Virus record (IMG/VR): IMGVR_UViG_3300050343_000270
Span: 32,001-96,000 of that record
Source of the DNA: a virus
Reading direction: 5' to 3' (one strand)
Length of the DNA: 64,000 bases
In this document: piece by piece, positions 1-48,119 of the stretch
How positions within the stretch are numbered: position 1 is the stretch's first letter
Layout of the letters: each line of letters opens with the position of its first letter
Notes under the pieces: generated by a model
Database searches by the model: none
What the model saw: only the letters and a program-made list of their open reading frames with translations
Told to the model about the DNA's origin: nothing
Translations under genes and position numbers: made by a program

Positions 1-92
1 TGTTTCGCAAGCTGTCTTTTTCTCACTTGCTTGGATTCATTATAGTATAATTCTCAGAAAGCGCAAGGATTATTTCGCCCTTTTATCACTTT
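1..92 (-). repeat. Copy 1 of ~92-bp early promoter/leader module (copy 2 at 685-776)
   Basis: Near-identical direct repeat; minus strand reads TTGCGC-16nt-TATAAT followed by a GCAAG...CTTGC hairpin. Confidence 0.85.
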
Positions 93-93
93 G

Positions 94-384
94 TCAGTTC
101 TCCCAAGGAAATTTAGTTACGCTCGCCTCACTCCACCCGTCGATAAGACCACGCGCCCACTCAGCTTCTTCTCGCGCTTCGTTCCTTTCGCGTTCAAGTC
201 TTTCAACATCTTCAAGCTTTAACGACTTATCATTTTCTTTTTTAAGGCGGCGAATCTCTTGAATGAGCATATTCATTTCATCAATGAAGTCGTCAACTCC
301 TGACATTTTGTCACCGTAAACATCGGTTACAGTTCCATCGTTGCAGTTGTATTCGTAGTTGTGGGCGGTGAATTCGTTTTTCAT
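94..384 (-). CDS. Hypothetical early protein, coiled-coil
   Basis: 96-aa ORF, co-oriented with neighbours, ERERNEAREE coiled-coil segment. Confidence 0.7.
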   Translation of the reverse strand: MKNEFTAHNYEYNCNDGTVTDVYGDKMSGVDDFIDEMNMLIQEIRRLKKENDKSLKLEDVERLERERNEAREEAEWARGLIDGWSEASVTKFPWEN

Positions 385-407
385 ACCTAATTATATTAGT
401 GTTTCAA

Positions 408-668
408 TTAGTCTACAACTTCCTCTGTCAATTCGGTGGTAACCACCTTAGTTAATTTGACGACTTCTACTTTTTCGTTAGGGATGATTACCTGAACTCC
501 ATGACCTAAAACATAGGTATATTTGTCATTCTTGTATGGTGTTTTGGTCTTGTTAGTAATCTCTTCTCCAACATCGATTGTGCGTTCCACGCCATGCCAT
601 TTGAACGTGTGTTGTTCGCGCATGCGGTGCATGTAGTTTGTGGTAGTTTTTCTGTTAGTGTTTTTCAT
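408..668 (-). CDS. Hypothetical early protein
   Basis: 86-aa ORF directly downstream of promoter module copy 2. Confidence 0.7.
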   Translation of the reverse strand: MKNTNRKTTTNYMHRMREQHTFKWHGVERTIDVGEEITNKTKTPYKNDKYTYVLGHGVQVIIPNEKVEVVKLTKVVTTELTEEVVD

Positions 669-684
669 AGTAGTATTTTTTTAG

Positions 685-776
685 TGTTTCGCAAGCTGTC
701 TTTTTCTCACTTGCTTGGCTATATTATAGTATAATTTTCAGAAACCGCAAGGATTATTTCGCCCTTTTATCACTTT
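685..776 (-). promoter_or_regulatory. Copy 2 of early promoter/leader module (sigma70-like)
   Basis: TTGCGG-16nt-TATAAT on minus strand; repeat of 1-92. Confidence 0.8.
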
Positions 777-808
777 TTTTTGTGGAACAAAATGTTCCAC
801 GGAGACTC

Positions 809-890
809 TGTAACTCGTTCATTATCAACGACTTATGACGGTGCGGCGGGGGCATCGTTGTAACTCGTTCAGTATCAACGACTTATGACG
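809..890. repeat. Two 32-bp direct repeats (809-840, 859-890), each an imperfect palindrome
   Basis: TGTAACTCGTTCA[T/G]TATCAACGACTTATGACG, 50-bp spacing. Confidence 0.9.
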
Positions 891-914
891 ATTTTTCTGT
901 TAGAGTTTTGAGCC

Positions 915-953
915 AAAAAAGCCCCGCCTCCCACACTACTAGGAGACGAGGCT
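915..953 (-). terminator. Rho-independent terminator
   Basis: Minus strand AGCCTCGTCTCC-loop-GGAGGCGGGGCT then a T-run, after ORF 993-1352. Confidence 0.75.
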
Positions 954-992
954 AACACTACTGCACTATGAAAGCTGTTAGATTGTTAGATG

Positions 993-1352
993 TTAGTTTT
1001 GCGCTATGCGTTTTATTTTAAGATCATGAAACCTTGAACCAAGAGCATTGCCACCTAACATATTTTTGCGGGATGTTAGAGTGAAAGAATACTCGCCTTG
1101 TCTAAGTAATGCTATGTCGATGTTAAGTCCCCAGTTTGTGCTTGGATGAGAATTGATTATGTTAGAATCTTCCTCTGTGAACTCTGCACCATCGGCGCGT
1201 GTTAGTTTTGTATTCGACGCGCTTTTGATTAAGATGTATTCGTTCGTTTGTATTTCTTCCGTGGTGATCATGGACGCGCAGACATAAGCCACGAGCGCCA
1301 AGACTAAAACGGAGAAGGTGATGGGAAGTATGTTAGAGATTATGTTTTTCAT
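993..1352 (-). CDS. Hypothetical membrane-anchored protein
   Basis: 119 aa with an N-terminal hydrophobic helix. Confidence 0.7.
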   Translation of the reverse strand: MKNIISNILPITFSVLVLALVAYVCASMITTEEIQTNEYILIKSASNTKLTRADGAEFTEEDSNIINSHPSTNWGLNIDIALLRQGEYSFTLTSRKNMLGGNALGSRFHDLKIKRIAQN

Positions 1353-1381
1353 TTTAGTTGTTAGTATTTAGTTGTTAGGTG

Positions 1382-1621
1382 TTAGTAGAGAGATGATTCG
1401 ACTGCTTCATAACGGAATTCACCATCATCATTCATCTGGTCAAGCTCCTCGTCGGTAGCTTGCCGCCCGTCAACTCTCGCATCCATGATGAATGCGTCCA
1501 CAAAGTCGGGATAATCGCGATGATCAATTCCATCTATTTCCATATCATGGATTTGTGCGGTGTAAGCTCCACGCTCGGAGCAATTGAATTTGAACTCTGT
1601 TCCTGTTAGTGTGTTTGTCAT
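1382..1621 (-). CDS. Hypothetical phage protein (DYPDFVDAFI motif)
   Basis: 79-aa acidic ORF with A/C-rich leader. Confidence 0.75.
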   Translation of the reverse strand: MTNTLTGTEFKFNCSERGAYTAQIHDMEIDGIDHRDYPDFVDAFIMDARVDGRQATDEELDQMNDDGEFRYEAVESSLY

Positions 1622-1649
1622 AGTGTTAGTGTTGTTAGTGTTGTTAGGT

Positions 1650-1844
1650 TTAGTCGATGATTGCTGTCACTTGCTCTTCCGTAAACTCGATTTCTTTTCC
1701 ATCGGTATCAGTTCCAGAGAAACCTGTTAGGCGGCTTCCTTCTTCGACGGAAACTTGAATTCCGTTCACGATCACCATCATTCCCCTGAGAACGATACCA
1801 GCATCGATTGCGTCTTGCCATGCTTTCATTGTCATTTTTTTCAT
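1650..1844 (-). CDS. Hypothetical protein
   Basis: 64-aa ORF in operon-like arrangement. Confidence 0.7.
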   Translation of the reverse strand: MKKMTMKAWQDAIDAGIVLRGMMVIVNGIQVSVEEGSRLTGFSGTDTDGKEIEFTEEQVTAIID

Positions 1845-1863
1845 AGTGTTATTTTTTTAGTTG

Positions 1864-2121
1864 TTAGTTGTTAGGTAGTTCTAAATTTCTGTAAGCGTAT
1901 TCTGCTTTGACCGCTTCAAGTTGTTTTTTCAGTCTATCGGTATCATACTTGCGAGTTAAAAGGTCGCTTGTGGTATTTAAAAACCAAGTGCGCAAAACAC
2001 ACTCGGAGCTAAAGTGCAATTCTATTGCGAACGCGCTCGGCTTATTGGATTGAAATCCGTTTGCCTTGCATGGTGCTTCGTATCCTTCAGTCCAGTAATC
2101 TTTTGTAGTAGTGTTGTTCAT
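1864..2121 (-). CDS. Hypothetical protein
   Basis: 85-aa ORF preceded by TTGCTC-17-TAAAAT. Confidence 0.7.
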   Translation of the reverse strand: MNNTTTKDYWTEGYEAPCKANGFQSNKPSAFAIELHFSSECVLRTWFLNTTSDLLTRKYDTDRLKKQLEAVKAEYAYRNLELPNN

Positions 2122-2159
2122 GGCAGTATTTTAGTGTATTTTTCCGATAAGAGCAAGTT

Positions 2160-2324
2160 TTAATTTGCTGTTTTATTAACTTTTTTTAACTCGGTTACAG
2201 CGTCTTGTATTTGCTTTGTGCTTTTGTCAGAAGTGACTTTCATTGAAGCTATAACTTGATCAAAAGCGTTTACGTTTTCTTGCATCTTGAGGAGTGTTTC
2301 TTGGATTGTCTCTTGGTTGCTCAT
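2160..2324 (-). CDS. Small coiled-coil hypothetical protein (54 aa, not in the ORF track)
   Basis: MSNQETIQETLLKMQENV...; extended -10 TGGTATAAT just upstream. Confidence 0.55.
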   Translation of the reverse strand: MSNQETIQETLLKMQENVNAFDQVIASMKVTSDKSTKQIQDAVTELKKVNKTAN

Positions 2325-2437
2325 GTGGATATTATACCAGAAAACACGGAATTAAAAAGCTTTTTCTGCATCAAAAGTGCTTTTTTTTTAATGTTCCACG
2401 GAATTGTTCCACGGAGAATGTGAGCCAGATACCAAAA

Positions 2438-2483
2438 GATACCACCTAACAGATACCACCTAACAGATACCACCTAACAGATC
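2438..2483 (+). repeat. Tandem 14-mer AGATACCACCTAAC x3 plus partial copies
   Basis: Directly visible; non-coding, followed by G-runs. Confidence 0.9.
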
Positions 2484-2709
2484 CAGACCCACGGCGGGAA
2501 AGGGGGAGGGGTTTTTTGAAAGTTCCTGTTAGAGTTATTCTGTTAGAAATCGGCGGGGGGTGGTTTATACTAAAAATCCAAATCAGAACCATCCAAACAA
2601 AAAAAGCTAATTCAGCTTTATATAGCCCTCATTTAAAAAACCAGACTTAATGTATCCATTATTTTTCTACAATGGGGCGTGTTATTTTGTTGTGTTGTGT
2701 TGTGTTGTG

Positions 2710-3021
2710 TTATTTCTTAGAGAATGTTTTAAGAAGAGACTCGGTTTGTGTGTTGGAGAGGATTGTGGATTCTATGTTTGACAGTAGGTTTGTTCCATAC
2801 ATATTTGTTCCATAATTTTTCTTATAGCATTTGTATTTTGAGTTGCTATTTCCGTGGATTATGTAGTGGTCGTCCATATCTTCGACATTTTTTATACCTG
2901 AGTTTACTCTCCAGCTATCTCCGTCTAGATAACCGCCGCTCCAAACGGCGAAAACTTTATAAAGGTCGTTGTCGCAATCTATTACGAGCCATTTGTGTGG
3001 GATATATGTGTTGTTTGTCAT
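2710..3021 (-). CDS. Conserved phage hypothetical protein
   Basis: YKVFAVWSGGYLDGDSWRVNSGI resembles a widespread phage hypothetical family. Confidence 0.75.
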   Translation of the reverse strand: MTNNTYIPHKWLVIDCDNDLYKVFAVWSGGYLDGDSWRVNSGIKNVEDMDDHYIIHGNSNSKYKCYKKNYGTNMYGTNLLSNIESTILSNTQTESLLKTFSKK

Positions 3022-3172
3022 TTTATTAGATTATTTTTGAGAAGATAAAGAATATGAGTAGCCAGAATACGAGTGGACCTAGTATCCAGATGAAGGTGGC
3101 TATATAAGGCGGCGCTTTATTAAAGAGTCTCGATTTGTTATGTGATTGTTTTAATTTCATAATATGATTATG

Positions 3173-3370
3173 CTAATATGTGTTGCCATGCCAGATGACC
3201 TTTGGTCGTGCGGGCTTTGATCCTTGTAGTGATATGACTTCTAGTTCTAGTCTATCAATGCGGCGCGACTGTTCATCAATCCATTTAGTCATCCCGCATA
3301 TTAAAATCCCAAATAACCCGATACAGCAAAGCGTGGCAACATAATCCCAATCTGTTTTTTTATTTTTCAT
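3173..3370 (-). CDS. Small membrane protein
   Basis: 65 aa, one TM helix, ATGA overlap with the upstream gene. Confidence 0.65.
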   Translation of the reverse strand: MKNKKTDWDYVATLCCIGLFGILICGMTKWIDEQSRRIDRLELEVISLQGSKPARPKVIWHGNTY

Positions 3371-4215
3371 TTTTGTTTATTGTTTTGTGTAAGTTTGCTG
3401 ATGTGGTGTCCGATGTGGTCACCTTTGTGGTCGCCGACTTGGTCGCCTTCGTGGTAGCCGATGTGGTCGCCGTCGTGGCGTCCGATATGGTCGCCCCAGT
3501 GGTAGCCGATGTGGTTGCCCCAGTGGCTACCTTCGTGGTCGCCGTAGTGGAGTCCTTCGTGGTCGCCGTGGTGGTTGCCGATGTGGTCGCCTTCATGGTC
3601 GCCTTTGTGTCTGCCTTTGTGGTCACCATCGTGGCTTCCAATGTGGTCGCCTTCGTGGTAGCCGATATGGTCGCCCCAGTGGTAGCCTTTGTGGTCTCCG
3701 TTGTTGTAGCCGATATGGTCGCCTACGTGGTCGCCGATGTGGTCGCCGTAGTGGAGTCCTTCGTGGTCGCCGTGGTGGTTGCCGTAGTGGTTACCCTCGT
3801 GTTTACCTTCGTGCTTGCCAATGTGGTTTCCGTAGTGGTCGCCCCAGTGGATGCCTTCGTGGATGCCGTAGTGGCTTCCTTTGTGTTTGCCGTAGTGGTC
3901 GCCGTAGTGGCTTCCTTTGTGGTCGCCGTGGTGGTTGCCGTAGTGGCTTCCTTTGTGGTCACCTTTGTGGTCACCTTTGTGGTTGCCTCCGTGGTCGCCG
4001 TCGTGGTCCCAGTGGTTTCCGTAGTGGTTTCCGACATGGTCGCCGTAGTGGCATCCGTAGTGGTCGCCGTAGTGGAGTCCTTCGCGGTTGCCGTAGTGGT
4101 TGCCTATGTGGTTGCCTATCAGGTCAGTTTTCAACTTTGTTAAGACTAGCTTTCCGTCTTCGTCATATCCAAACGACGCAACCTCTGATATTTCTTTTAG
4201 TGTTGGTTCTTTCAT
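3367..4215 (-). CDS. His/Gly-rich tetrapeptide (G-x-H-x) repeat protein
   Basis: 282 aa; about 55-60 G-[DNSKY]-H-[YEIKWH] units from a 12-nt repeat; normal N-terminus and AT-rich leader. Confidence 0.8.
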   Translation of the reverse strand: MKEPTLKEISEVASFGYDEDGKLVLTKLKTDLIGNHIGNHYGNREGLHYGDHYGCHYGDHVGNHYGNHWDHDGDHGGNHKGDHKGDHKGSHYGNHHGDHKGSHYGDHYGKHKGSHYGIHEGIHWGDHYGNHIGKHEGKHEGNHYGNHHGDHEGLHYGDHIGDHVGDHIGYNNGDHKGYHWGDHIGYHEGDHIGSHDGDHKGRHKGDHEGDHIGNHHGDHEGLHYGDHEGSHWGNHIGYHWGDHIGRHDGDHIGYHEGDQVGDHKGDHIGHHISKLTQNNKQK

Positions 4216-4666
4216 TTTATTTTTAGTTGTTTTTAGTTTATTTTAGTTTATTTTAATTTTGCCTATTTTGGCTCTAACACTGCGAAGCTCTTTTTTTAGA
4301 ATGCCTATGATAACCCCCACCGAGGCATCCTCCATTTCTTTAACTAAGTCTTCATTATCGACCCAGACCCTTTTTTCCCCAAGGTAGGCAGGTGTAGTGG
4401 TGTAGAGGTGGATTCCGCGATTCTGAGATTTTTATGATTTGTCTAGATATCGAGTCACGGTAATCTCTTAAATCAATAAGAGATTCTATTTTTTAGTTGC
4501 CTTTTGTTTGCGAAGCTCTTTTGCCTATTTTTTTCATGTCTTCATTATCTTTTTTCCTTCCGCGGTGGACTAGATATCGAGCAAATCTCTATCAGAAAAT
4601 AGCAATCTAGTTTTTAGTATTGGTTAAATTATCGAACAAGCCGAAGCATTTCCTTGGTGGACGTGC

Positions 4667-4695
4667 AAACTATCAGAAAATAGCGTGAATGTCAA
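4667..4695 (-). promoter_or_regulatory. sigma70-like promoter
   Basis: TTGACA-17-TAGTTT on minus strand. Confidence 0.6.
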
Positions 4696-4730
4696 TAATT
4701 ATTTTAATTCTTCTCATCTTGGCGCGATAG

Positions 4731-4952
4731 CTATGGTTTCTTTTGGTATTTCATTGAAGCCTCCCAGCAATCCTCAAGTTCTTTACTGAAACGTTCCTGC
4801 TCCTCCTCCGTAAATGGTTCTGGTCCGTCGTCCATATAACTGTTAGCCAAATCTGCGGCACAATTATCGCAAAGGCATTCATAGCCTGCGCCGAGGACGA
4901 AAGCACCACATCTGCGGCAGGTGTCTGGTTCTGAGATTGTGTCTTCGTTCAT
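4731..4952 (-). CDS. Small Cys-rich (CxxC) hypothetical protein
   Basis: 73 aa, CRRC...CDNC. Confidence 0.65.
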   Translation of the reverse strand: MNEDTISEPDTCRRCGAFVLGAGYECLCDNCAADLANSYMDDGPEPFTEEEQERFSKELEDCWEASMKYQKKP

Positions 4953-5019
4953 GTTGTTTTTAGTTGGGCGGTTGAGCTATACGTTCTGCTTAAAATGAAT
5001 GCGGTAGTATTGGTAATAA

Positions 5020-5190
5020 TCATTTTATATATTTAAGGGATTTTTTAGCGTGGTGCATCATCGCCCCTATCTCTCCATTCCTGCACGCCCTACGCAACTC
5101 GCTCTCGTGGTATTCAATAAAAAACAACCGAACAAGGCATTGTATCCAACGCCATGCATCGTTGGAGGGTTTAATTAAAAGTTTTTTCAT
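5020..5190 (-). CDS. Cassette ORF (56 aa, not in the ORF track) starting inside an attC
   Basis: MKKLLIKPSNDAWRWIQCLVRLFFIEY...; ATG at 5190. Confidence 0.55.
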   Translation of the reverse strand: MKKLLIKPSNDAWRWIQCLVRLFFIEYHESELRRACRNGEIGAMMHHAKKSLKYIK

Positions 5191-5216
5191 GGCGTGGATA
5201 AATTTAGACGTTCTCC
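5127..5216 (+). other. Complete attC-like site (90 bp)
   Basis: ACCGAAC-AAGGC-ATTGTATCCAACGCCATG...CATGGCGTGGATAAAT-TTAGAC-GTTCTCC; two extrahelical bases, 5/6-nt spacers. Confidence 0.85.
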
Positions 5217-5410
5217 GAAGATGAAATAGCGTGTCGCCATGTCACATCGGTCAGACCATGATGGATTATTTCGAGCGGGTAGTCGCCAAGTGTGCCGAGA
5301 TTGGCGCGGAGCACTCCGCCCTTCCAGTAGACCGCGACCCACTCGGGCTTGTAATCGTTTTCCATGCATCGCAAGTAGTAGCCTCCCGTTTTTATGTCTT
5401 TAAGTTCCAT
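5204..5410 (-). CDS. Cassette-borne hypothetical protein
   Basis: 68 aa; stop codon lies in the attC right arm (...SENV*). Confidence 0.7.
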   Translation of the reverse strand: MELKDIKTGGYYLRCMENDYKPEWVAVYWKGGVLRANLGTLGDYPLEIIHHGLTDVTWRHAISSSENV

Positions 5411-5487
5411 GTTGTTGATTATTTTAAGTCATTGATTGTTTTTAGTTGTGCCACCGTTTAGACGGGGCGGCTGTTCTTAGCGTTCGC

Positions 5488-5715
5488 CTAATCATTTCTA
5501 AATGCGCTCCACCGCTCTCCGTCATCTAGGTAGTCGTCCATCTGGCAGGACTTTAAGAACTCTCGGTCAATTACCAAGACATCCTCACGGTCGAGCCATA
5601 GAATGTAGGCGTTGTCTTCCTCTGCGATTCGCTCAAGGCTTTTGCCTTTGTGTTTCCCAAACTCAAGAACAAACTCGGGCGAACAAGGCGTTGAAATCAA
5701 TTTCGTTTCACTCAT
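5488..5715 (-). CDS. Cassette-borne protein with FGKHKGK motif (DUF3820 / exonuclease X C-terminal-like)
   Basis: LEFGKHKGKSLERIAEEDNAYILWL. Confidence 0.7.
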   Translation of the reverse strand: MSETKLISTPCSPEFVLEFGKHKGKSLERIAEEDNAYILWLDREDVLVIDREFLKSCQMDDYLDDGERWSAFRND

Positions 5716-5736
5716 GATTTAACTTGGTCGTTATCC
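5678..5736 (+). other. Complete attC-like site (59 bp)
   Basis: GGCGAAC-AAGGC-GTTGAAATCA...TGATTTAAC-TTGGTC-GTTATCC. Confidence 0.88.
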
Positions 5737-5930
5737 AAGGAATATTTCACAGGTCCAGTCATGTCCCAAACGCTATCGAAGGGGTTGCCATCTGCCTCTT
5801 TCTCCCACCTCTCAAGCGTCTTCTTGGCTTTCGTCTCGCTACTGAATACGTGCGCCCCGTCGAGAGGGTCAAAGAGCACCCATAAGGCTCTGACCGCTTT
5901 TCGTGTTCTTATTTGTGTTTTTACGCTCAT
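5712..5930 (-). CDS. Cassette-borne hypothetical protein
   Basis: 72 aa; ends inside attC with an ATGA overlap to the next gene. Confidence 0.7.
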   Translation of the reverse strand: MSVKTQIRTRKAVRALWVLFDPLDGAHVFSSETKAKKTLERWEKEADGNPFDSVWDMTGPVKYSLDNDQVKS

Positions 5931-5940
5931 AATAAAAAAT

Positions 5941-5999
5941 GGATAACAAGGCGATGCACGGGCAACGGCTACGCCGTGCCGTGATCTTGGTCGTTATCT
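5941..5999 (+). other. Complete attC-like site (59 bp)
   Basis: GGATAAC-AAGGC-GATGCACGGGCAACGGC-TAC-GCCGTGCCGTGATC-TTGGTC-GTTATCT. Confidence 0.9.
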
Positions 6000-6409
6000 C
6001 TATATGCATTTAAGGCTTCAATCACCCACGCCTCGAACTTGTCTTGAGCTTCACACGCTGAATCGTTGCTCATCGCTAGCCCTCCACCTCGCCCCGTCAG
6101 ATATCCCCACGCTCTCACGTCGAGCACGTTGGTATCTCCGCATTTGGTTCTGATGAATATCTTCCCCATGCTCCCGACACCGTAGAATTTACCATCAAAT
6201 TCACTAGGGAGAGAACAAGGCGAAACATCCGACAGCTTGCCGCTTGGTTTGGTTTCTGTGTTATCTTTTCCTGTGCCGTTGCATTTATGGCAGTCGGTTC
6301 TCCCTCCTCCACCAAAACCTTCAAGCTCGCCCAATCCATCGCAAAGGGAACAAGGCGAAGCATCCGACGGCTTGCCGCTTGGTTTGGTTTCTGTTTTATC
6401 TTTTTTCAT
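5969..6409 (-). CDS. Two-module cassette protein (DnaJ-type CxxCxGxG Zn finger plus unknown domain)
   Basis: CSLCDGLG / CHKCNGTG; duplicated leader TETKPSGKxSDxSPCSL. Confidence 0.7.
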   Translation of the reverse strand: MKKDKTETKPSGKPSDASPCSLCDGLGELEGFGGGGRTDCHKCNGTGKDNTETKPSGKLSDVSPCSLPSEFDGKFYGVGSMGKIFIRTKCGDTNVLDVRAWGYLTGRGGGLAMSNDSACEAQDKFEAWVIEALNAYRDNDQDHGTA

Positions 6410-6424
6410 GTCAATAATTTGTGT

Positions 6425-7132
6425 TTAACTTTCGCGGTTATCAACGGCTTCGCCGTGACATCGCTGATTGTTCGCTTCAAAACAATGGTTGAGATAGCCG
6501 ATTGCGAGACAAGCGGCATGTTCAGCCTGTTCCAGTGTGGTCTTGCTGGGGGCTTTCGTCCATATCGCCTCGTTAAGAGCCAATTTTAACTCAACCCAAT
6601 CGGGATCTTCGGAAAGCGAACAAGCCGAAGCATCCGACCCTTCACCGTTAATAGTTGTTTTTTCTTTTTCTTTGTGCATGTCAATAATTTGTTTTAACAT
6701 AGAATCCCTTGGATACCATCGGACTACATAATGCGCATGCACCATTGACCCGTCAGCGTTTCCTACCACCTTCTCGCAAATGCCGCGAAAAACTACGCGA
6801 CCATTAGAAAGCCGCCTCATCCTTCTCTTTCTAATCTTTCCGTCATAGTCCTCTGTCCATATTGGTTCTCCAAAAATAAGGCTAACAAGGCGCTTCATCC
6901 GACCGTTAACCGTTCCTGAGTTGGTTTCGTTTTCTTTTGTGTTCATAAGTTTTCTGGCATCTAAGCAAATATTGCAAATTGACCCGCAACATTCTTGTTT
7001 AACAATCACTTTAACGTGCCGTCCTGTCCCTGCCTCGGTCAACATTTCGTCGTTGATTGACTTGCATACATCACAGCTAACAAGCCGCTGGACATCAATG
7101 CCCACTTCAGCGGGCGTTTCTTGTGTTTTCAT
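6425..7132 (-). CDS. In-frame fusion of three cassette modules (internal starts 6946, 6679)
   Basis: Three attC-arm-derived leaders (VQRLVS, MKRLVS, DASACS) within one ORF. Confidence 0.6.
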   Translation of the reverse strand: MKTQETPAEVGIDVQRLVSCDVCKSINDEMLTEAGTGRHVKVIVKQECCGSICNICLDARKLMNTKENETNSGTVNGRMKRLVSLIFGEPIWTEDYDGKIRKRRMRRLSNGRVVFRGICEKVVGNADGSMVHAHYVVRWYPRDSMLKQIIDMHKEKEKTTINGEGSDASACSLSEDPDWVELKLALNEAIWTKAPSKTTLEQAEHAACLAIGYLNHCFEANNQRCHGEAVDNRES

Positions 7133-7490
7133 GTTGTTTCTGTGTTGTTTCTGTGATTCCAAACGGTTCCATTGAAGTCATAAACCTTTCTAGCAGTTCG
7201 TCGGATCTCCATGCCACTGCGCACAAGTGGTAAACCGCCTCTTCCTTATCGCCTCTCATGTAAGCCTCCTCAAAATCGATGAGGTGTCGGCATATTTGGT
7301 TGCCATCGCCAATGCTGGCATCGACATCCCAAACCATACCCTCGTCCCCAGAATGTTTTAGGTTTGAGTTGTAAGAGTGGATGGATTTGGCGACATGTGC
7401 ATTGGGAAAGTATCTTGTGATATAGTGTAGTACGCGAGCTTTGTTTCTTTCGCTGTCTTCGCGTGGAAGAATTGTATTTTTTGACTGCAT
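7107..7490 (-). CDS. DUF5664-like dATP/dGTP diphosphohydrolase domain protein
   Basis: YFPNA..., W...S....RHL..., HLCAVAWR motif pattern; start reassigned to MQSK. Confidence 0.6.
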   Translation of the reverse strand: MQSKNTILPREDSERNKARVLHYITRYFPNAHVAKSIHSYNSNLKHSGDEGMVWDVDASIGDGNQICRHLIDFEEAYMRGDKEEAVYHLCAVAWRSDELLERFMTSMEPFGITETTQKQHENTRNAR

Positions 7491-7497
7491 GTGATAT

Positions 7498-7526
7498 AAG
7501 ATAGCGCAAATTGATTCAAATGTCAA
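7498..7526 (-). promoter_or_regulatory. sigma70-like promoter reading into the cassette array
   Basis: TTGACA-17-TATCTT on minus strand. Confidence 0.7.
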
Positions 7527-7616
7527 CATGATTTATAAAAAAAAACAACAATAAATTAAAATACAAAAATTTGAATAAAAAATAGATTTTTAGGTGTAAT
7601 TATTTTAACATTTTTT

Positions 7617-7970
7617 ATGAATAAAATTTTCTGTGTATCATGTGGAACTAAAAACGTCTACGAAACAACTAAGCCTAAATTTTGTGCTAATTGTGGGGAG
7701 GCGATTTCTGGAGTATCTCAAGCAACTCAAAAGACTTCAGATGAGGTCGAAGAGGTGTCTGTGAGTAGTATTGATTTAGATGGTCTAAAGAGGGGCATTG
7801 GAGTTCAGTATAACAAATCTGTAACTAAAATTGAAGATGTTTTCGGAAAAGGGGCGGATGGATCTGCTAGCAGACGCGCTCCTAGTAATTTACCAAGTGG
7901 TAAAGACATCATCAAGCACAACATGCAAGATTGTGCGCAAGCCTCAAGATCAAAAGATATTAATGAATAA
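7617..7970 (+). CDS. Zinc-ribbon protein
   Basis: FCVSCG...FCANCG. Confidence 0.75.
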   Translation: MNKIFCVSCGTKNVYETTKPKFCANCGEAISGVSQATQKTSDEVEEVSVSSIDLDGLKRGIGVQYNKSVTKIEDVFGKGADGSASRRAPSNLPSGKDIIKHNMQDCAQASRSKDINE

Positions 7971-8643
7971 TCAATACGAGGATATGCAAGACGAGATTGA
8001 ACGTCTTCTAGCTCGTTATAGATCAAAGTGGCAATTGACCGCTTTGGCATGGCTAGATTATGATGATATCTCACAACTGATTCGCACCCATATTTACAAG
8101 AAATGGCATTTGTGGGACCAAAAGCGACCCTTCGCGCCTTGGTGTGCGCGGCTGATCTATAATCAGATTAGGAATCAAATCAGGAATCATTATGGTAATT
8201 TTGCGAAGCCGTGTCTCAAATGCTCTCACTATATGGGAGGCGAGGAATGTTCGCTTAACAAAAGCGGCAACATTAGCGCGGAATGCAGTTTATACGCCAA
8301 GTGGAAAAAGAAAAAAGAAAAGGCTTACAATCTTAAACTACCTTTATCTTTAGACCCCGCCGTTTCTATTGGAGAGACCTGTATTAAAGAAGGTATAGAC
8401 TATGAGGAGAAAACTGGGACGCTTCATAAACTTATTATTAATAAAATAACCAACGATAAACAAAAAGAGATTTACAAAATGATCTATGTTGATCACTGTT
8501 CTGATCAAGAGGTGGCGGAAAAGTTTGGTTTTAAACAAGATAAGAAAAACAGGAAAACGCCACGATATAAGCAACTAAATAACCTGAAGAAGAAATTCTA
8601 CGAAATCGGGAAGAAAATAATAGAAGAGGAGGATTTGATTTGA
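7963..8643 (+). CDS. Phage RNA polymerase sigma-factor-like protein with Cys-rich insert
   Basis: Region-2-like DYDDISQ...WDQKRPFAPW...NQIRN, C-terminal HTH (SDQEVAEKFG); start at MNNQ. Confidence 0.65.
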   Translation: MNNQYEDMQDEIERLLARYRSKWQLTALAWLDYDDISQLIRTHIYKKWHLWDQKRPFAPWCARLIYNQIRNQIRNHYGNFAKPCLKCSHYMGGEECSLNKSGNISAECSLYAKWKKKKEKAYNLKLPLSLDPAVSIGETCIKEGIDYEEKTGTLHKLIINKITNDKQKEIYKMIYVDHCSDQEVAEKFGFKQDKKNRKTPRYKQLNNLKKKFYEIGKKIIEEEDLI

Positions 8644-9704
8644 ACAAATACAAACTTTCAGACGAAGAAAAGCAACAAGTGATCAGAGAATTTAAAAAAG
8701 ACCCTGATCTTAAGCGCATTACACAAGTTGTTTCTGGTGATCCAGAGGCAGACGGTCGTCATAAGATAGGCAGGGCTATAAGAGCCTTTTTAAGCGAGCA
8801 AAACAAGGAATACAAGACTACAAAGCACGAAGAATGTAATGCAGTCAACCTAACGGAACAACAAAGGGATTTCCTTATGGGCGACCATATCGATTCTGAC
8901 ATGACTCCACTTGATATCGCTCGTATTGTTTTTGAGAATGGAGAAATTAAGAGTTTAAGCCTACATCACCGTGCTGTTATCAACTTTCTTACTCAATATC
9001 GACCAGATATCATCAACGAGAATGAAGTGGTGACTTCTGAAAGGTGGAATCCGCCGACAGCAGTTTCAAGGTCTGTTAAAAAAGTAAACGATTGGGCGGG
9101 TCAGGAAATATCTATAGAAAGCATTAGCAACAAGCATGAAAAGATGATGCGTATGCTTATCAAGTATCTCCACAGCCCCAGATTGAAGCAAACCATAAAT
9201 GAGTATTGCCGCGTTACTGACAGGGAGTTATTTGAGAGTGAATTTGTGCGAGCGACATGGGATAAGCCCGATTTGACCTCCGATGAGCAAAATCAATACA
9301 TAACCCTATGTACCAACTACGTCAGAATTAAGCACATACAGGCGCGACTAGATAAATTGAACAAGATGCTCGATGACATGGGTGACGACGCACAGGGGGC
9401 AACTATACGCTTTACAGAGCTTATTAAGACCACTAGTGAGGAACTCAATCAATGCGAGAAGCGAGTAGAGGCTCTTACGAAGAGTCTGAATGGTAGTCGT
9501 CAAGACAGATTGAAGGCGAAAGGTGAAAGAAGTGGATCTATCGAAGCTTTGGTTGAAGCGTTTCAAGACAAGCAAGATCGTGATCTTATGATCAAGATGG
9601 CTGAAATGAAAAAACGCCTTGTGGCAGATACTGCGGATAAGTTGGAGACAATGAGTGAGTTTAAGGCTCGCGTCCTTGGGATTTCAAAAGAAGAATTGTT
9701 ATGA
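8640..9704 (+). CDS. Hypothetical helical protein, terminase small subunit candidate
   Basis: 354 aa, coiled-coil C-terminus, upstream of TerL. Confidence 0.45.
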   Translation: MNKYKLSDEEKQQVIREFKKDPDLKRITQVVSGDPEADGRHKIGRAIRAFLSEQNKEYKTTKHEECNAVNLTEQQRDFLMGDHIDSDMTPLDIARIVFENGEIKSLSLHHRAVINFLTQYRPDIINENEVVTSERWNPPTAVSRSVKKVNDWAGQEISIESISNKHEKMMRMLIKYLHSPRLKQTINEYCRVTDRELFESEFVRATWDKPDLTSDEQNQYITLCTNYVRIKHIQARLDKLNKMLDDMGDDAQGATIRFTELIKTTSEELNQCEKRVEALTKSLNGSRQDRLKAKGERSGSIEALVEAFQDKQDRDLMIKMAEMKKRLVADTADKLETMSEFKARVLGISKEELL

Positions 9705-10648
9705 GTGAATTTGAATGTAAAGAATGCGGTAAAACCTTCACATCCAGAAGGGGTTTACACCAGCATACAAAATGTCATTTTGACAGCCTTGCGGAGTATT
9801 ATGTTAAACACCATCCACGCTACGATCTATTTTCAAAAGAACCTATACCTTTTAAAAAATACAGTCAATATGTGGATACTGATTTTGTTTCTTACGACAA
9901 TTATTTAAAGTGGATCAAGGTAAGCCCATCGTCCGAAGTAAAAGAATACATTATTAAGAAATTTAAACAAAAAGCAGAACACAAAGAACTTGGGTTTATG
10001 CCGCCCAATGCTTTTTATGATTTGTATGAGATGCCGAACATCATGACCATGCGGAATGTGTGGGGAAGTTACAACGCATTTTGCAAAGAGATTGGTCTTC
10101 CAGTTAAGCTAAACAAAAAACTTCCAGAATCATTTTGGAGTAATGATGCCTCAGATATTACTGTGATGGTTGACACAAGGGAGCAGTTACCGTTTTCATA
10201 TAAAAATAGTATTAGTCAGAAACTGGACTTTGGTGATTACACGGCGGCGGGGGAAGATTTCTCCAAGACATTCGTGGACAGAAAGTCTGTTGGCGATTTT
10301 AGATCGACTTTTGGTAAGGATATAGATAGGTTTAGAAGAGAAATGGATCGTTGTGTTCAGTTTGATTCTTACATGTTTGTTGTAGTCGAGGATTCCATCC
10401 AAGGAGTGAAAGAGGCTAATAAAAAAACAAAATTCAAAAGCAATCTTAATTATGTATGGCACAATGTCCGAGATCTTATGATAGAGTATCCTGACAACCT
10501 TCAATTTATATTCGCTTATTCGCGCAACGGAGCTAAAAAGATTACTCCAAAAATCTTAAAACATGGACAGGATTTATGGAAGGTAGACTTGCAATACTAT
10601 ATCGAAAATAGGGTTTGCGGTAAACAAAGGGTCAGCATGAAAAGGTGA
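9701..10648 (+). CDS. C2H2 zinc finger plus ERCC4/XPF-type nuclease
   Basis: CKECGKTF...LHQHTKCH; VDTREQ...GDY...DRKS..DF. Confidence 0.75.
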   Translation: MSEFECKECGKTFTSRRGLHQHTKCHFDSLAEYYVKHHPRYDLFSKEPIPFKKYSQYVDTDFVSYDNYLKWIKVSPSSEVKEYIIKKFKQKAEHKELGFMPPNAFYDLYEMPNIMTMRNVWGSYNAFCKEIGLPVKLNKKLPESFWSNDASDITVMVDTREQLPFSYKNSISQKLDFGDYTAAGEDFSKTFVDRKSVGDFRSTFGKDIDRFRREMDRCVQFDSYMFVVVEDSIQGVKEANKKTKFKSNLNYVWHNVRDLMIEYPDNLQFIFAYSRNGAKKITPKILKHGQDLWKVDLQYYIENRVCGKQRVSMKR

Positions 10649-23351: not shown

Positions 23352-24581
23352 ATGCCTGACGTAACTGTAACATCCGATATAGATACTTTTTTAAAGAGTT
23401 CAAATAATTCAACTGCCAGAACAAACCTTGGAGCAGAATCTGCACCCACCTCTATCGCCAACAAAGAAGCCGCCTATGCCCTGACAGGTGTGGCAGTCGG
23501 CACCGTTTATAAGACCGAGGACACGGGGCAGGTGATGGAGTATCGAGGGGGAGGGGAATCTTTGCCTACCAGTTGGCAATTTAACGTCACTGTAGACGGG
23601 GGCAGTAAAAACGCGAAACTCTCCGACATACCAGCAGGGAACCCAGCAGGTATCGTCAGAATGGTCAGCACAAAGACCAGCAACTTATCCGTCACGGTAA
23701 AACATGATGGCACGGAGTCGGCTACGGGCATCTGTTACTCAGTGGACGGAGGCGCACCTGTCTATGGAGCCATTGCGGCAGATACCAGCCTTAATCTATC
23801 CATCCCACACAATGGCGGCGCCCCCACGGAAATTTACATTTGGAGTGCTACCAGTGCCTCTAGCGGCAAGAAAGGGGAGTTGACCTATCTGTCTTGCTCC
23901 AACATCTCCTTGACCTCACTTGATGTTTCGGGCTTGACGGCATTGACCCTTCTGTATTGCCACAACAACTCCTTGACCTCACTTGATGTTTCGGGTTTGA
24001 CGGCATTGACCACTCTGTATTGCCACGAAAACTCCTTGACCTCACTCGATGTTTCGGGCTTGACGGCATTGACCACTCTGTATTGCTACAACAACTCCTT
24101 GACCTCACTCGATGTTTCGGGCTTGACGGCATTGACCCTTCTGTATTGCCACAACAACTCCTTGACCTCACTCGATGTTTCGGGCTTGACGGCATTGACC
24201 ACTCTGTATTGCTACAACAACTCCTTGACCTCACTCGATGTTTCGGGTTTGACGGCATTGACCTCTCTGTATTGCAACAACAACTCCTTGACCTCACTCG
24301 ATGTTTCGGGTTTGACGGCATTAACCTATCTGTTTTGCACCAACAACTCCTTGACCTCACTCCTAGCAACGGGCGTTGACCTTAGCTTTGAGTATTATGG
24401 AGTAGTAGGCTCCGACATCGGTGACAACGACCTGACCGAAGCGGCATTGATCGCGTTTGTAGATTCCCTCGCCACAACCGCAACGGGGCTTATCGCATAC
24501 GGCGGCAACATAGGTTCCGCAGAGTTTGAAACATGGCTCGCAACGGGCGATGACAAGGGATACATCTGGTTAAATAGTTAA
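23352..24581 (+). CDS. Leucine-rich-repeat protein, putative tail fibre / receptor-binding protein
   Basis: 7 x 21-aa LTSLDVSGLTALTxLYCxxNS; N-terminal ARTNLG fibre-like motif. Confidence 0.85.
   Translation: MPDVTVTSDIDTFLKSSNNSTARTNLGAESAPTSIANKEAAYALTGVAVGTVYKTEDTGQVMEYRGGGESLPTSWQFNVTVDGGSKNAKLSDIPAGNPAGIVRMVSTKTSNLSVTVKHDGTESATGICYSVDGGAPVYGAIAADTSLNLSIPHNGGAPTEIYIWSATSASSGKKGELTYLSCSNISLTSLDVSGLTALTLLYCHNNSLTSLDVSGLTALTTLYCHENSLTSLDVSGLTALTTLYCYNNSLTSLDVSGLTALTLLYCHNNSLTSLDVSGLTALTTLYCYNNSLTSLDVSGLTALTSLYCNNNSLTSLDVSGLTALTYLFCTNNSLTSLLATGVDLSFEYYGVVGSDIGDNDLTEAALIAFVDSLATTATGLIAYGGNIGSAEFETWLATGDDKGYIWLNS
23907..24362 (+). repeat. 63-bp tandem repeat x7 plus partial unit
   Basis: Near-identical units encoding the LRR. 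Confidence 0.95.
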
Positions 24582-46447: not shown

Positions 46448-47536
46448 CTATTGAAAGATTACACTTAAAATTTTATCGATACTCTTCTCGTAGGTGAACT
46501 CGCTTTTCAGTTTTTCGCCTTCTTTGTTCGGTTGTTTCGCCATAACGACAGCCGTTTCAAAAGCTGAAAAGATTTTTTCTTCGGAGATTTTATAATAACT
46601 GCCTTGGTTAAAAAGAAGACCTTCGTGGAAAAATATGTTGTCGTAGCATGGCTGTTTGTGTTCTGGCTCAACAAGAATACAATTATCTTTTTTCGCCCAA
46701 TCTTTGTGAGACGAACAGTTTGAAACTATACTCCACTTGCCGAGAGCCGTCGCATTAAACGCTGGCAGATTCCAACCCTCGCCATTTGAAAGACCTGATA
46801 AATCAATGTCAATTGAGTTGGTGAGTTCGTTAACCTCTGAGTTGGTAGTAAGATGTGGTAGGAAGTTTATATTACTCCAACTTTGATTCATTAAGCTATA
46901 CTGCAACATCTCATCCATAGTCTCTTTTGCAAAGAATGGATTATTAACCAAACAAGTAAGTTGGTATTTTGGATTGTTTCCAAAACGCTTTAACCAAGAC
47001 TGGATGATTAGAGATGTATTTTTGCGCCGTTCAAATTTGCCGACCAAACCAAAATGAGTAACATCGTCCATATACTCCTTATCGGTTTTACAAAAATCAG
47101 GATCGAATCCTAGAGGGACGTGAGATACGTTATCACAACCAGCGGATTTAAAAGCATCATAAGCGTCAGAAGAAGAAAAGAAAACATGCTTCTGGGCTTT
47201 GACGATATTGATCTCAGCTTCGGTTGGGCTATCAAGTTCGTAAAACGTGTATAAGTATTGTTCCTTTCCTATCCAACGTTCACTGCCATTAATGTGCCAA
47301 ACTCGAAGTGTCGGCGTGTTGGCATTCAAGTTGGAGTATCTGGATTGACCTGATTTCTTGATATACTCAACAAGTTCATCAGATTTTTTATCATAGGAGG
47401 CTAGCTCCGCTTTATCCCCAACAGGGAAAAGGTTTACATCTACGCCTTTTTTGTGAAGCTCTCGCATAAAGTTAAAGCTCACATTACCCAAACTAAGGGA
47501 GTTTAGGGGCGCATCAAAATTCAATTGTTTGTTCAT
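46448..47536 (-). CDS. GT4 glycosyltransferase
   Basis: VGKFERRKN, EGWNLPAFNATALGK. Confidence 0.8.
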   Translation of the reverse strand: MNKQLNFDAPLNSLSLGNVSFNFMRELHKKGVDVNLFPVGDKAELASYDKKSDELVEYIKKSGQSRYSNLNANTPTLRVWHINGSERWIGKEQYLYTFYELDSPTEAEINIVKAQKHVFFSSSDAYDAFKSAGCDNVSHVPLGFDPDFCKTDKEYMDDVTHFGLVGKFERRKNTSLIIQSWLKRFGNNPKYQLTCLVNNPFFAKETMDEMLQYSLMNQSWSNINFLPHLTTNSEVNELTNSIDIDLSGLSNGEGWNLPAFNATALGKWSIVSNCSSHKDWAKKDNCILVEPEHKQPCYDNIFFHEGLLFNQGSYYKISEEKIFSAFETAVVMAKQPNKEGEKLKSEFTYEKSIDKILSVIFQ

Positions 47537-48119
47537 TTTTTACTCGGTTTTGGAAAATTTTAAGTGTTTTGTCGTGAATGTTTATACAGCTTTGTGCTGA
47601 AAGATCTAAGGTTTTGGCTATTTTCTTCCATGGCGTAAGCTTGTTATTGTTGGTCTCAAAGTATCGCATTTTGAATATTTGTTGCACACGCTTGTCATGA
47701 TAATTAGTTATCATGTCTTTAATTTTCTCCATGGATTCGTTTTGTAGACAGTCTTCGTCTGGAGTAGGAGAGTTATCGCTCTGACAAAATTCCGTCTCTT
47801 CCAGACTTGTCATTATGCTGTGTTTTTGGAATTTAGTTTTCTCCGATAAACATAAGTATTTAGTCGTGTTAGCCAAGAAGGTAGAAAACTTCGACCTTTC
47901 TGGATCATACTTCTGAGCGGCTTCATATATAACAGAGTCTTTCTGGTCTATAAAGTCATTCAATTGGTTTTGGTTAAAACTTTTACCGCCATATGCTTTT
48001 AGCATATCCATAAAAATACCAGAATGCCTAAAGATTAATTCTTTTAACGCATCTTCATCACAAGCGGTTTCTCTCACTTGTGCGGCTAACTCTTGATCTG
48101 TTGATTTAGTTAAGTCCAT
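47514..48119 (-). CDS. Sigma-70 family sigma factor
   Basis: IYEAAQKYDPERSKFSTFL; HTH TPWKKIAKTLDLS. Confidence 0.8.
   Translation of the reverse strand: MDLTKSTDQELAAQVRETACDEDALKELIFRHSGIFMDMLKAYGGKSFNQNQLNDFIDQKDSVIYEAAQKYDPERSKFSTFLANTTKYLCLSEKTKFQKHSIMTSLEETEFCQSDNSPTPDEDCLQNESMEKIKDMITNYHDKRVQQIFKMRYFETNNNKLTPWKKIAKTLDLSAQSCINIHDKTLKIFQNRVKNEQTIEF

Follow-up and report, generated by a model that had tools for sequence, protein, structure and literature searches.

An uncultured marine tailed phage carries in its early region, at 4635–7093 of the window (the whole 64-kb stretch analysed from IMGVR_UViG_3300050343_000270, i.e., about 64 kb of a genome of >100 kb, with part of the phage genome lying outside), ten sites in direct orientation on the minus strand, and we conclude with good confidence that they form a CALIN (cluster of attC sites lacking an integrase) of Oceaniferula-type attC sites, whose cassettes are probably recombined in trans by a host IntI and whose sites also serve as coding sequence. 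The array is filed as a CALIN and not as an integron because an integrase and an attI were not found. A complete integron would combine intI with attI and Pc beside the array; this combination was not found in the window, in which no attI was identified, and a promoter-like sequence (7498–7526) faces the array.

Composition of the array

The sites of the array start with xxxxAAC and finish with G(C/G)CTTGTT, so that they display the AAC and GTT triplets that, together with an imperfect hairpin containing an R box and an L box, characterize attC sites (PMC5027507). Nine copies of GSCTTGTT fall within 4635–7086 on the minus strand, and both strands of the whole 64-kb window together contain 15, against 4.4 +/- 1.9 in shuffled sequences (0/100 shuffles reached 15). 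In the direction of gene reading, the features are as follows:

7498–7526, minus strand: sigma-70-like promoter facing the array, TTGACA-17-TATCTT, 10/12
7079–7093, minus strand: S1, 3' arm (R''/L'' side, bottom-strand version) with the end GGCTTGTT, recognisable 5' arm absent; putative leader from the ATG at 7130–7132, reading ...AEVGIDVQRLV across the arm
6880–6997, minus strand: S2, degenerate full-length attC, now coding throughout; ATG at 6944–6946; covariance model (CM) 20.7 bits, E = 3e-3
6619–6639, minus strand: S3, 3' arm GGTCGGATGCTTCGGCTTGTT; 5' arm deleted; putative leader from the ATG at 6677–6679 (MHKEKEKTTINGEGSDASAC)
6478–6618, minus strand: body SLSEDPDW..., with GTT-CGCTT at start and AAGCG-AAC at end, a 10-bp inverted flank
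6349–6477, minus strand: S4, complete long attC (CM 22.3 bits, E = 1.2e-3); R' AAGCGAAC (6470–6477), hairpin CACGGCGAAGCCGTTG (6442–6457) and the stop of the upstream ORF (6425–6427), followed by TTGACATG with the start ATG (6407–6409), leader MKKDKTETKPSGKPSDASPC and arm end GCCTTGTT
6214–6265, minus strand: S5, short attC without start or stop; CM 11.8 bits, E = 0.43 (weak)
6001–6213, minus strand: body LPSEFDGK..., with the end GAGAT-AAC; found directly after the S3 leader in relatives
5945–6000, minus strand: S6, 55-nt bulged hairpin attC, GAGATAAC...GCCTTGTT; tail DQDHGTA, stop TAG at 5969–5971
5737–5944, minus strand: body, 72-aa ORFan, with GTT-ATCC at start and GGAT-AAC at end
5682–5736, minus strand: S7, 55-nt attC, GGATAAC...GCCTTGTT; tail DQVKS, stop TGA at 5712–5714, overlapped by the start ATG at 5713–5715; leader MSETKLISTPC
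5489–5681, minus strand: body, ExoX-like_C domain protein, with GTT-CGCC at start and GGCG-AAC at end
5429–5488, minus strand: S8, 5' half-site, GGCGAAC GCTAAGAACAGCCGCC...; 3' arm missing, full version in relative L170
5131–5216, minus strand: S9, complete 86-nt attC, GGAGAAC...GCCTTGTT, top match to the bacterial model (35 bits, E = 1e-6); tail V, stop TAA at 5204–5206, start ATG at 5188–5190, leader end ...QCLV
4635–4695, minus strand: S10, truncated site; promoter-like TTGACA-N17-TAGTTT (4667–4695), AAGGAA and 3' arm ATGCTTCGGCTTGTT (4635–4649)

Related sequences complete several of these entries, since a full S1-related site of 96 nt is present in L160/L174 and the S10 leader, deleted in the window, is present in L082, L210 and L170. 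Because the 5' arm of S3 is deleted, the ORF upstream of it reads through without a stop, and S5 is an in-frame linker that joins a Zn-finger piece (6266–6348) to the LPSEFDGK body within ORF 5969–6409. On the cassette proteins, PHROGs and PADLOC gave no function, and Pfam gave the ExoX-like C-terminal domain and a weak DnaJ-type zinc finger. Note that the phage also encodes a RecA-like protein and nucleases, and that its large terminase subunit shows only about 25% identity to Bacillus phage proteins. Neither an Rfam search of positions 1–9000 nor a nucleotide search of cultured phage records returned a match. The motif cluster is absent from relatives with 70–73% terminase identity or 39–62% sigma identity, and complete or large relatives contain the 8-mer at background frequency.

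Bacterial counterpart of the sites and the probable recombinase

The first-pass annotation had read the repeats as attC sites, which holds: their 21-nt arm is common to about 157 sites of Oceaniferula spumae (Verrucomicrobiota), most of them adjoining a TIGR02249 integrase, and the arm of S2 (6884–6904, GGTCGGATGAAGCGCCTTGTT) matches, without a single difference, the arm that is most frequent among Oceaniferula attC sites. In this bacterium, sites of the family make up an array of ~78 kb that adjoins a bona fide integron integrase (TIGR02249, 394.5 bits for a cut-off of 265, at 2,796,309–2,797,250), with 55+ sites carrying the same arm from 2,799,527 to 2,877,488, about 157 genome-wide and 0 in the reversed control; related genomes contain 246, 68 and 13 sites. 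The covariance model, trained on 50 bacterial attC sites, found five matches in the window, each of them within the array and on its minus strand, three of them significant (E = 1e-6, 1.2e-3 and 3e-3) and two weak (0.43 and 0.52), as well as 19 matches of up to 65 bits in array-bearing relatives and none in 18 control loci. The half-site S8 has its homologue in the R'/L' arm of bacterial attC sites. Site homology is thus established, and it concerns the sites only, as the array DNA matches O. spumae at the sites and has 0 cassette bodies in common with it. Since the phage sites belong to the attC family of their sedentary chromosomal integrons, Oceaniferula and related Verrucomicrobiota are the likely hosts, a link that relies on the taxon-specific attC sequence and is reasoned as in Ghaly et al. 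2021 (PMC8352920).

A host IntI probably acts in trans on the phage sites, and we infer this enzyme because no integrase match was obtained in the window or in relatives. The recombinase might instead be encoded by the phage outside the window, as a small Xer-like tyrosine recombinase or a member of another class acting on the same attC sites, an unlikely explanation that draws on the fact that about 64 kb of a >100-kb genome were examined. Against it, PF00589 matched none of the window ORFs of at least 120 aa, nor anything in a complete 146.9-kb relative or in three partial ones; in all, the negative searches for a tyrosine recombinase covered the window, G001, G002 and G003-G005. Moreover, the phage sites have kept the exact L''/R'' arm of a bacterial array linked to IntI, an indication in favour of that IntI.

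Hairpin structure and flanking sequences

In recombinogenic attC bottom strands, extrahelical bases lie on one arm only, opposite AAC (PMC5027507). The short phage sites fold into two stems, an R stem of 8 bp and a second one, separated by an unpaired spacer of 5/4 nt; this central spacer was found as a 5/4-nt (once 5/3) internal loop directly after the R stem in 8 distinct short sites. On the gene-sense strand, about 10 unrelated stems together have 15 single-base bulges on the 3' arm, which is the arm opposite AAC, and a single one on the 5' arm, and the bacterial consensus structure is alike. These one-sided bulges correspond to the geometry of the recombinogenic bottom strand (PMC5027507). 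The phage R boxes are mostly GTTCGNN / NNCGAAC, with some GGATAAC / GTTATCC, and depart from the canonical GTTRRRY / RYYYAAC at the position of the first R; a like departure is seen in the bacterial family linked to intI, with GTTCGGC beside GTTAGGC. Folded whole, the long sites show no gain in stability over shuffled sequence, and when 76-nt stretches around each motif were folded, significant stability was observed for S6 and S9 only. Because several window sites (S1, S3, S8 and S10) are truncated, part of the array may be inert.

The flanks also follow the rule of integron cassettes, by which the core site that opens a cassette is the complement of the inverse core site that closes it, the two being one site in the circular form. 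The reverse complement of the 4 nt after GTT, followed by AAC, is found downstream in 38/68 distinct bodies, against 11.5 +/- 2.8 (max 19) in 300 permutations, and fourteen flank types are involved. The bacterial array obeys this rule site by site, and the flanks of neighbouring cassettes are mostly non-complementary.

Cassette turnover at the site edges

Four related sequences (L164, L196, L198 and L219) are 99% identical to the window over 9000–6619 and 6233–4649 but are devoid of 6234–6618, and they carry other cassettes in a differing order. As another example, the ExoX-like body (5489–5681) is present as 99.6% identical copies in other contexts (L084 and L214), and its depth reaches about 24 x that of the phage backbone in one seawater metagenome. 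Over 34 sequences, breakpoints cluster directly after ...CTTGTT and directly after ...GAAC, which sets the cassette boundaries, and metagenome contigs display breaks and rejoinings at the site edges, so that turnover of whole cassettes is directly observed. Note that the public-run data are contigs, including those of an RNA library, which are uninformative on strand, starts, transcript ends and circles; joints that go back in these contigs represent other array orders. Several of the public runs contain 70-91% of the window.

In the direction of the genes, each cassette consists of a site followed by its gene body, and the crossover would fall between AA and C at the body end. Of the 17 body groups that recur in at least two contexts, 10 have differing downstream sites and 5 have differing upstream sites, as expected for cleavage between AA and C, and the linkage of a body with its upstream site is kept more often than that with its downstream site. 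Homologous recombination contributes too, since upstream sites also change and some breakpoints lie inside modules; others fall at the 5' edge of a shared 20-mer.

It could be argued that the attC homology is historical only, resulting from a one-time capture out of a bacterial integron, and that shuffling now proceeds by homology or microhomology between regulatory modules in a PeSL-like manner. The modules do hold a hairpin, a sigma-70-like promoter, a stop and a start, as PeSLs do, and the internal breakpoints, those at the edge of the 20-mer, the truncated sites and the RecA-like protein and nucleases of the phage are in line with such a process. However, homology leaves unexplained that the junctions are always at AAC (the flanks at AAC/GTT junctions share only 3-5 nt), that one body is followed by at least 5 unrelated downstream modules, that complementary flanks are body-specific in 14 types, that bulges are one-sided in about 10 unrelated stems, and that exchange is commoner at the less homologous junction. 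We therefore regard a purely historical role of attC as improbable, and favour ongoing recombination of the cassettes by a host IntI.

Sites as coding sequence

The coding strand of the array is the minus strand. The homologous cassette pair of the window (5712–5930) and L164 displays minus-strand ORF differences of 32:12:2 at codon positions 3:1:2, and the antisense frame, although open, gives an atypical 28:2:11; this analysis relies on a single cassette pair, the pooled count being blurred by a His-rich repeat gene. The two proteins are identical at 57/67 positions up to Asn and wholly divergent beyond it. The homologue of body 5737–5944 in L164/L195/L198 shows 78% nucleotide and 85% amino acid identity and has another tail.

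The features described earlier from the letters alone were recovered in full. The minus-strand ORFs end in ...SENV (stop at 5204), ...DNDQVKS (5712), ...DNDQDHGTA (5969) and ...ANNQRCHGEAVDNRES (6425); ATGs are present at 5190, 5715 (in an ATGA overlap with the preceding stop), 6409, 6679, 6946 and 7132; these stops and starts lie in S9, S7, S6 and S4 or just upstream of the 3' arms of S3, S2 and S1; and the recurrent peptides (P/A)CS and RLV(R/S) are one DNA stretch read in two frames. The same applies to the central claim, which natural variants show directly: a cassette brings a site and a start of its own, and the C-terminal tail and the stop of its gene come from the site of the next cassette. 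The contrast with canonical cassettes, also proposed at that time, comes mainly from the orientation of the phage genes, which occupy the bottom strand of attC and run inverted with respect to the bacterial array.

AAC is in frame as Asn at 42/49 body ends, against one third expected, and a stop follows 2-20 codons later inside the next site. One frame dominates on leaving GTT: the T-xx frame is open in 44/74, with an ATG about 61 nt upstream. Changes of the C-terminus are equally established, as a single body ends in ...LLAN-DQVKS or ...LLAN-V, another in ...LSSN-THQSHGEAVDSRES, -DQSEPLHG or -GKDQS, and a third in ...FTPN-SQRCHGESK, -SKRCHGEAVDIRES or -AKDHGTA, each ending with a stop and set by the downstream site. 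We propose that the R''/L'' arm would be translated as the end of a leader (...SDAS(A/P)C-S or ...RLV-S/R), that the AAC of R' would be read as Asn, and that the R'/L' arm of the next cassette would give 1-20 tail codons and a stop; in addition to the ATG, long sites bear a Shine-Dalgarno sequence, a hairpin and a promoter of sigma-70 type, and sites without stop and start would serve as in-frame linkers fusing cassettes. We rejected ...SDASAC as a lipoprotein or signal sequence, since this DNA is also read in other frames.

From these frames, we infer that the in-site starts are used in translation. That the sites recombine with only incidental frames, translation starting downstream of GTT so that leaders and tails are not made, is very unlikely: most in-site ATGs are not preceded by a Shine-Dalgarno sequence, some bodies have their own ATG right after GTT (5930) or their own stop ahead of AAC (5488), and leaders run into a stop in some contexts (L084 and L210), but the in-frame AAC, the dominant frame leaving GTT with its upstream ATG, the many bodies without their own ATG near the 5' end and the AAGGAAA found 4-6 nt ahead of the leader ATG in promoter-bearing modules speak against it.

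Comparison with known systems

CALINs occur in virulent phage genomes, and IntI1 recombined five phage attC sites (Qi, Rajabal, Ghaly, Tetu, Gillings 2023, PMC9892861). The present array resembles them in that attC sites are found in a lytic-type phage without intI, for which a bacterial IntI in trans is plausible. In contrast to these CALINs, it packs ten sites into 2.5 kb, displays whole-cassette turnover among 99%-identical phages and clear site homology to one bacterial chromosomal integron family, and has all its genes on the bottom strand, with sites that carry promoters, starts, leaders, tails and stops. The integron of O. spumae NT6N (NZ_AP026866.1) shares with the phage the identical 21-nt arm, homology of both arms, the flank-complement rule and the AAC/GTT core. 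However, its sites are uniform (116–118 nt with 4-nt flanks) and lie beside intI, whereas phage sites range from 38 to 187 nt and are partly truncated; its cassette ORFs are mostly on the top strand within the cassette, whereas phage ORFs appear to span the sites on the bottom strand; and the two have no cassette body in common.

The PeSL cassettes of T4-type phages are repeated intergenic modules that recombine through about 100 bp of homology (Arbiol et al. 2010, PMC2839356). The likeness lies in a hyperplastic early region and in modules with an upstream stop, promoter, stem-loop and downstream start that bound swappable ORFans; in the phage, promoter and hairpin modules are found at 4667–4695 and in L082, L196 and L216, only some sites have a promoter, and junctions are at AAC/GTT. 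PeSLs are without the AAC/GTT core, the flank-complement rule, the one-sided bulges and an integron counterpart, all of which the phage sites have. In the integron literature consulted, most cassettes are described as having no promoter and depending on Pc for expression (PMC5027507), and attC linkers that are coding are found as an engineered design only, in which synthetic attC sites within coding sequence serve as peptide linkers (Nivina et al. 2020, PMC7439510). In both cases, an attC hairpin is read through as a linker and remains a recombination site, which for the phage is suggested by its open frames; the synthetic linkers were designed, whereas the phage sites are natural and would also supply starts and stops.

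Altogether, a taxon-specific attC sequence ties a widespread uncultured seawater phage to its likely host group, the Oceaniferula-like Verrucomicrobiota, and whole-cassette turnover takes place at integron sites within one phage species. The array further provides a natural case in which a recombination site is coding and regulatory sequence, and in which site-specific recombination would alter protein ends and make fusions, beyond moving whole genes. More tentatively, this phage line may have turned the integron integrase of its host into an engine of exon shuffling, with attC sites that have evolved into phase-compatible coding joints. If so, the joints would be AAC = Asn on the 3' side and T-xx on the 5' side, with promoter, start and leader in one arm and tail and stop in the other, and each IntI event would yield an early gene that is expressed and has either a new C-terminus or a new in-frame fusion. 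Such a system would be the natural counterpart of the engineered coding attC linkers, and would place phages and verrucomicrobial integrons in one cassette-exchange system.

The cassette array and its sites

The window represents a portion of an uncultured marine tailed phage, encoding the large terminase, portal, capsid and tape measure proteins as well as a ribonucleotide reductase, a DnaB-like helicase, a primase and a Pol III alpha-type polymerase; no close cultured relative of this phage was found. Small minus-strand genes fill bases 1 to ~7530, with one promoter at their upstream end:

7498-7526, sigma-70-like promoter, directed into the small minus-strand genes

Between 4635 and 7086, the minus strand has nine copies of the 8-mer GSCTTGTT; the whole window, counting both strands, has 15 (versus 4.4 +/- 1.9 in shuffles), and the conserved stretch reaches TCGGATGCTTCGSCTTGTT in several copies. 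Comparison with 33 contigs, viral and metagenomic, that contain the same 19-mer (34 sequences with the window) showed that the region consists of attC-type sites (S1 to S10 in the window) alternating with gene segments, hereafter bodies. Each site starts with xxxxAAC, ends with ...CTTGTT and measures 38 to 187 nt; short sites are plain bulged hairpins, and long sites add the hairpin CACGGCGAAGCCGTTG, an optional TTGACA-N17-TAGTTT promoter, AAGGAAA and an ATG with a leader of ~20 codons. Five sites are complete (S4, S5, S6, S7 and S9), four are half-sites (S1, S3, S8 and S10), and S2 is degenerate.

Other features surround this array. A 92-nt element present twice (1-92 and 685-776, 95% identity) displays TTGCG(G/C)-N17-TATAAT on the minus strand and is likely a repeated early promoter module. 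The 14-nt unit AACAGATACCACCT occurs three times in tandem at 2434-2482, in a stretch without genes, near runs rich in G/C and repeats of the CTAACAG type, which abound all through 1-2600. A 282-aa His-rich ORF (3367-4215, minus strand), which gave no family match, is composed almost entirely of 12-nt tandem repeats encoding G-(D/N/K)-H-x units, and homologous repeat genes flank the array in three of the compared loci (L198, L214, L219). Two weak sigma-factor-like ORFs (7831-8643, plus strand; 47514-48119, minus strand; phrog_1740, with Sigma70_r2 under the cut-off) suggest that the phage directs its own middle or late transcription. The ORF at 9701-10648 (plus strand), located between the early region and the terminase, joins a C2H2 zinc finger to an ERCC4-type nuclease domain and may encode a structure-specific nuclease, and a leucine-rich-repeat protein of the tail region (23352-24581, plus strand; LRR_4, E = 2e-26) is possibly a receptor-binding module.

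Cassette turnover and the flank rule

Four of the compared loci (L164, L196, L198 and L219) belong to the same phage, with 99% identity over two stretches, terminase to 6619 and 6233 to 4649. They lack 6234-6618, the junction falling exactly in the shared 20-mer, and carry other cassettes in a changed order. When the 34 sequences are compared, shared segments tend to end directly after ...CTTGTT and directly after ...GAAC, and one body was seen behind various leaders and before up to five unrelated downstream modules. Seawater metagenome contigs break and rejoin at the same coordinates as the array junctions. The cassette at 5482-5694 (ExoX-like_C domain protein) has a contig depth of ~1030 against ~44 for the backbone in one seawater metagenome (~24x), and two metatranscriptome libraries likewise have their greatest depth there; this cassette is therefore present in far more genomes than those of this phage.

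The bodies obey a flank rule, the four bases that follow GTT and the four that precede the terminal AAC being reverse complements of each other (in the window, GTTCGCTT ... AAGCGAAC, GTTATCC ... GGATAAC and GTTCGCC ... GGCGAAC). Of 68 distinct bodies, 38 conform to it, versus 11.5 +/- 2.8 (maximum 19) in 300 permutations, with 14 flank types represented; the flanks of neighbouring bodies across one site are mostly non-complementary. Such flanks are what would remain of a circular cassette whose single folded site had been cut within the R box.

When closed by their own flanks, short sites form an 8-bp R stem, an unpaired spacer of 5/4 nt and a second stem, in which single-base bulges favour the arm opposite AAC by 15:1 across ~10 unrelated stem sequences. 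Extrahelical bases opposite AAC mark the recombinogenic bottom strand, which is cleaved between A and C of its AAC (Nivina et al. 2016, PMC5027507); by this rule, the gene-sense strand of the phage array is the bottom strand. The crossover falls where a body ends on its 3' side; followed in the direction of the genes, a cassette is a site and then a body. In line with such a cassette, among 17 body groups found in at least two contexts (counts that are not fully independent, since some contigs are near-duplicates), 10 vary in their downstream site and 5 in their upstream site.

A bacterial counterpart in Oceaniferula

A scan of one genome per prokaryote species returned six exact matches to the 19-mer, in Oceaniferula spumae NT6N (Verrucomicrobiota). 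This genome encodes an integron integrase (2,796,309-2,797,250; TIGR02249, 394.5 bits for a cut-off of 265), next to which more than 55 sites with the same arm lie on a single strand (2,799,527-2,877,488, ~78 kb), forming a large sedentary chromosomal integron, and it has two further integrase-less clusters (350-356 kb and 452-473 kb). A looser arm pattern gave 157 copies in the genome and 0 for the reversed control, the commonest arm (GGTCGGATGAAGCGCCTTGTT) being identical to window positions 6884-6904; three other genomes of the family contain 246 (G087), 68 and 13 arm copies. The O. spumae sites are uniform (116-118 nt, including a 4-nt flank per side), follow the same flank rule as the phage bodies, show 3-bp arm covariation (GAA/TTC, GCT/AGC, GGA/TCC) and begin xxxxAACGTAGAG..CAACCG, homologous to phage 5' arms of the AACG(T/C)(A/T)AAGAACA(A/G)CCGC type. 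However, ORFs of at least 60 aa in the O. spumae array are mostly on the top strand (68 versus 29), whereas the phage genes are on the bottom strand.

A covariance model built from 50 O. spumae sites found five matches in the 64-kb window, all on the minus strand and all within the array.

Covariance-model matches in the window (home-built model, E-values rough)
S9, minus strand, E = 1e-6
S4, minus strand, E = 1.2e-3
S2, minus strand, E = 3e-3
S5, minus strand, E = 0.43
S6, minus strand, E = 0.52

It also found 19 sites (up to 65 bits) in array-bearing relatives and none in 18 control loci of related phages. Judged by homology, the phage sites clearly appear to belong to one bacterial chromosomal integron family, of which we found no description in the literature searched. 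Following the logic of host prediction from the attC family (PMC8352920), the predicted host would be an Oceaniferula-type member of the Verrucomicrobiota.

Note that six metagenome loci (L202, L203, L205, L213, L224 and L180) hold the 19-mer in another conserved context, ...GATTCCTCGGGG-19mer-CTGCTTCTTC, which recurs at a spacing of ~490 nt in contigs from microbial mats; these loci resemble attC arrays belonging to a further organism.

Sites as probable coding sequence

The first-pass annotation had proposed that attC sites supply stops, starts and leader peptides, and every minus-strand ORF end and ATG that it listed is present. Of 49 distinct body ends, 42 have an open frame in which AAC is the Asn codon, and in 30 of these no other frame is open; the stop lies 2-20 codons past AAC, within the next site. 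Beyond GTT, the T|xx frame is open in 44 of the 74 joints, for the most part with an ATG ~61 nt upstream, and reads ...SDAS(A/P)C-S, while the GTT-codon frame reads ...RLV-S/R. Before bodies beginning with AG, which have their own ATG, the leader becomes a free ORF of 17-21 codons (TAG at the joint). Where a site has neither stop nor start, it links its two cassettes into one reading frame, as with S5 (ORF 5969-6409) and a 38-nt site in L164.

The expected change of C-terminus with the neighbouring site was borne out, the same body having different C-termini in different arrays; indeed, the body ending ...LSSN continues as THQSHGEAVDSRES*, DQSEPLHG* or GKDQS*. The assignment of the minus strand as the coding strand also held, since one cassette pair differs 32:12:2 at codon positions 3:1:2; the encoded proteins share 85% identity as far as the Asn and have nothing in common after it. 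As read from these frames, the sites would be both coding and regulatory sequence, with the genes on the bottom strand.

Proposed mechanism and implications

During infection, the bottom strands of the array would fold, and the host integron integrase (IntI) would excise, insert and reorder cassettes by AA|C cleavage. Each cassette would bring its expressing site (start, leader and, in some, a promoter) and borrow its tail and stop from the next one, the frame rules leaving most new junctions readable. Homologous recombination between repeated modules would be an additional means of exchange, accounting for breakpoints inside modules and upstream-site swaps. We also considered a phage-encoded recombinase located outside the window and shuffling by homology alone, as for the promoter-stem-loop (PeSL) cassettes of T4-type phages, although recombination by homology does not predict the flank rule. 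Neither these nor a third alternative, that the sites are not translated, matches the integron reading on AAC junctions, flank rule and one-sided bulges together.

Clusters of attC sites without integrase, with at least two predicted sites each, were reported in virulent phages, and IntI1 recombined five phage attC sites (Qi et al. 2023, PMC9892861). Coding attC linkers exist as an engineered design (PMC7439510); no description of natural ones was found in the literature examined. What is new relative to Qi et al. is that the phage sites can be clearly placed in a single bacterial chromosomal integron family, with a predicted host, the population-level cassette turnover inside one phage species, and sites that would be coding and regulatory for bottom-strand genes.
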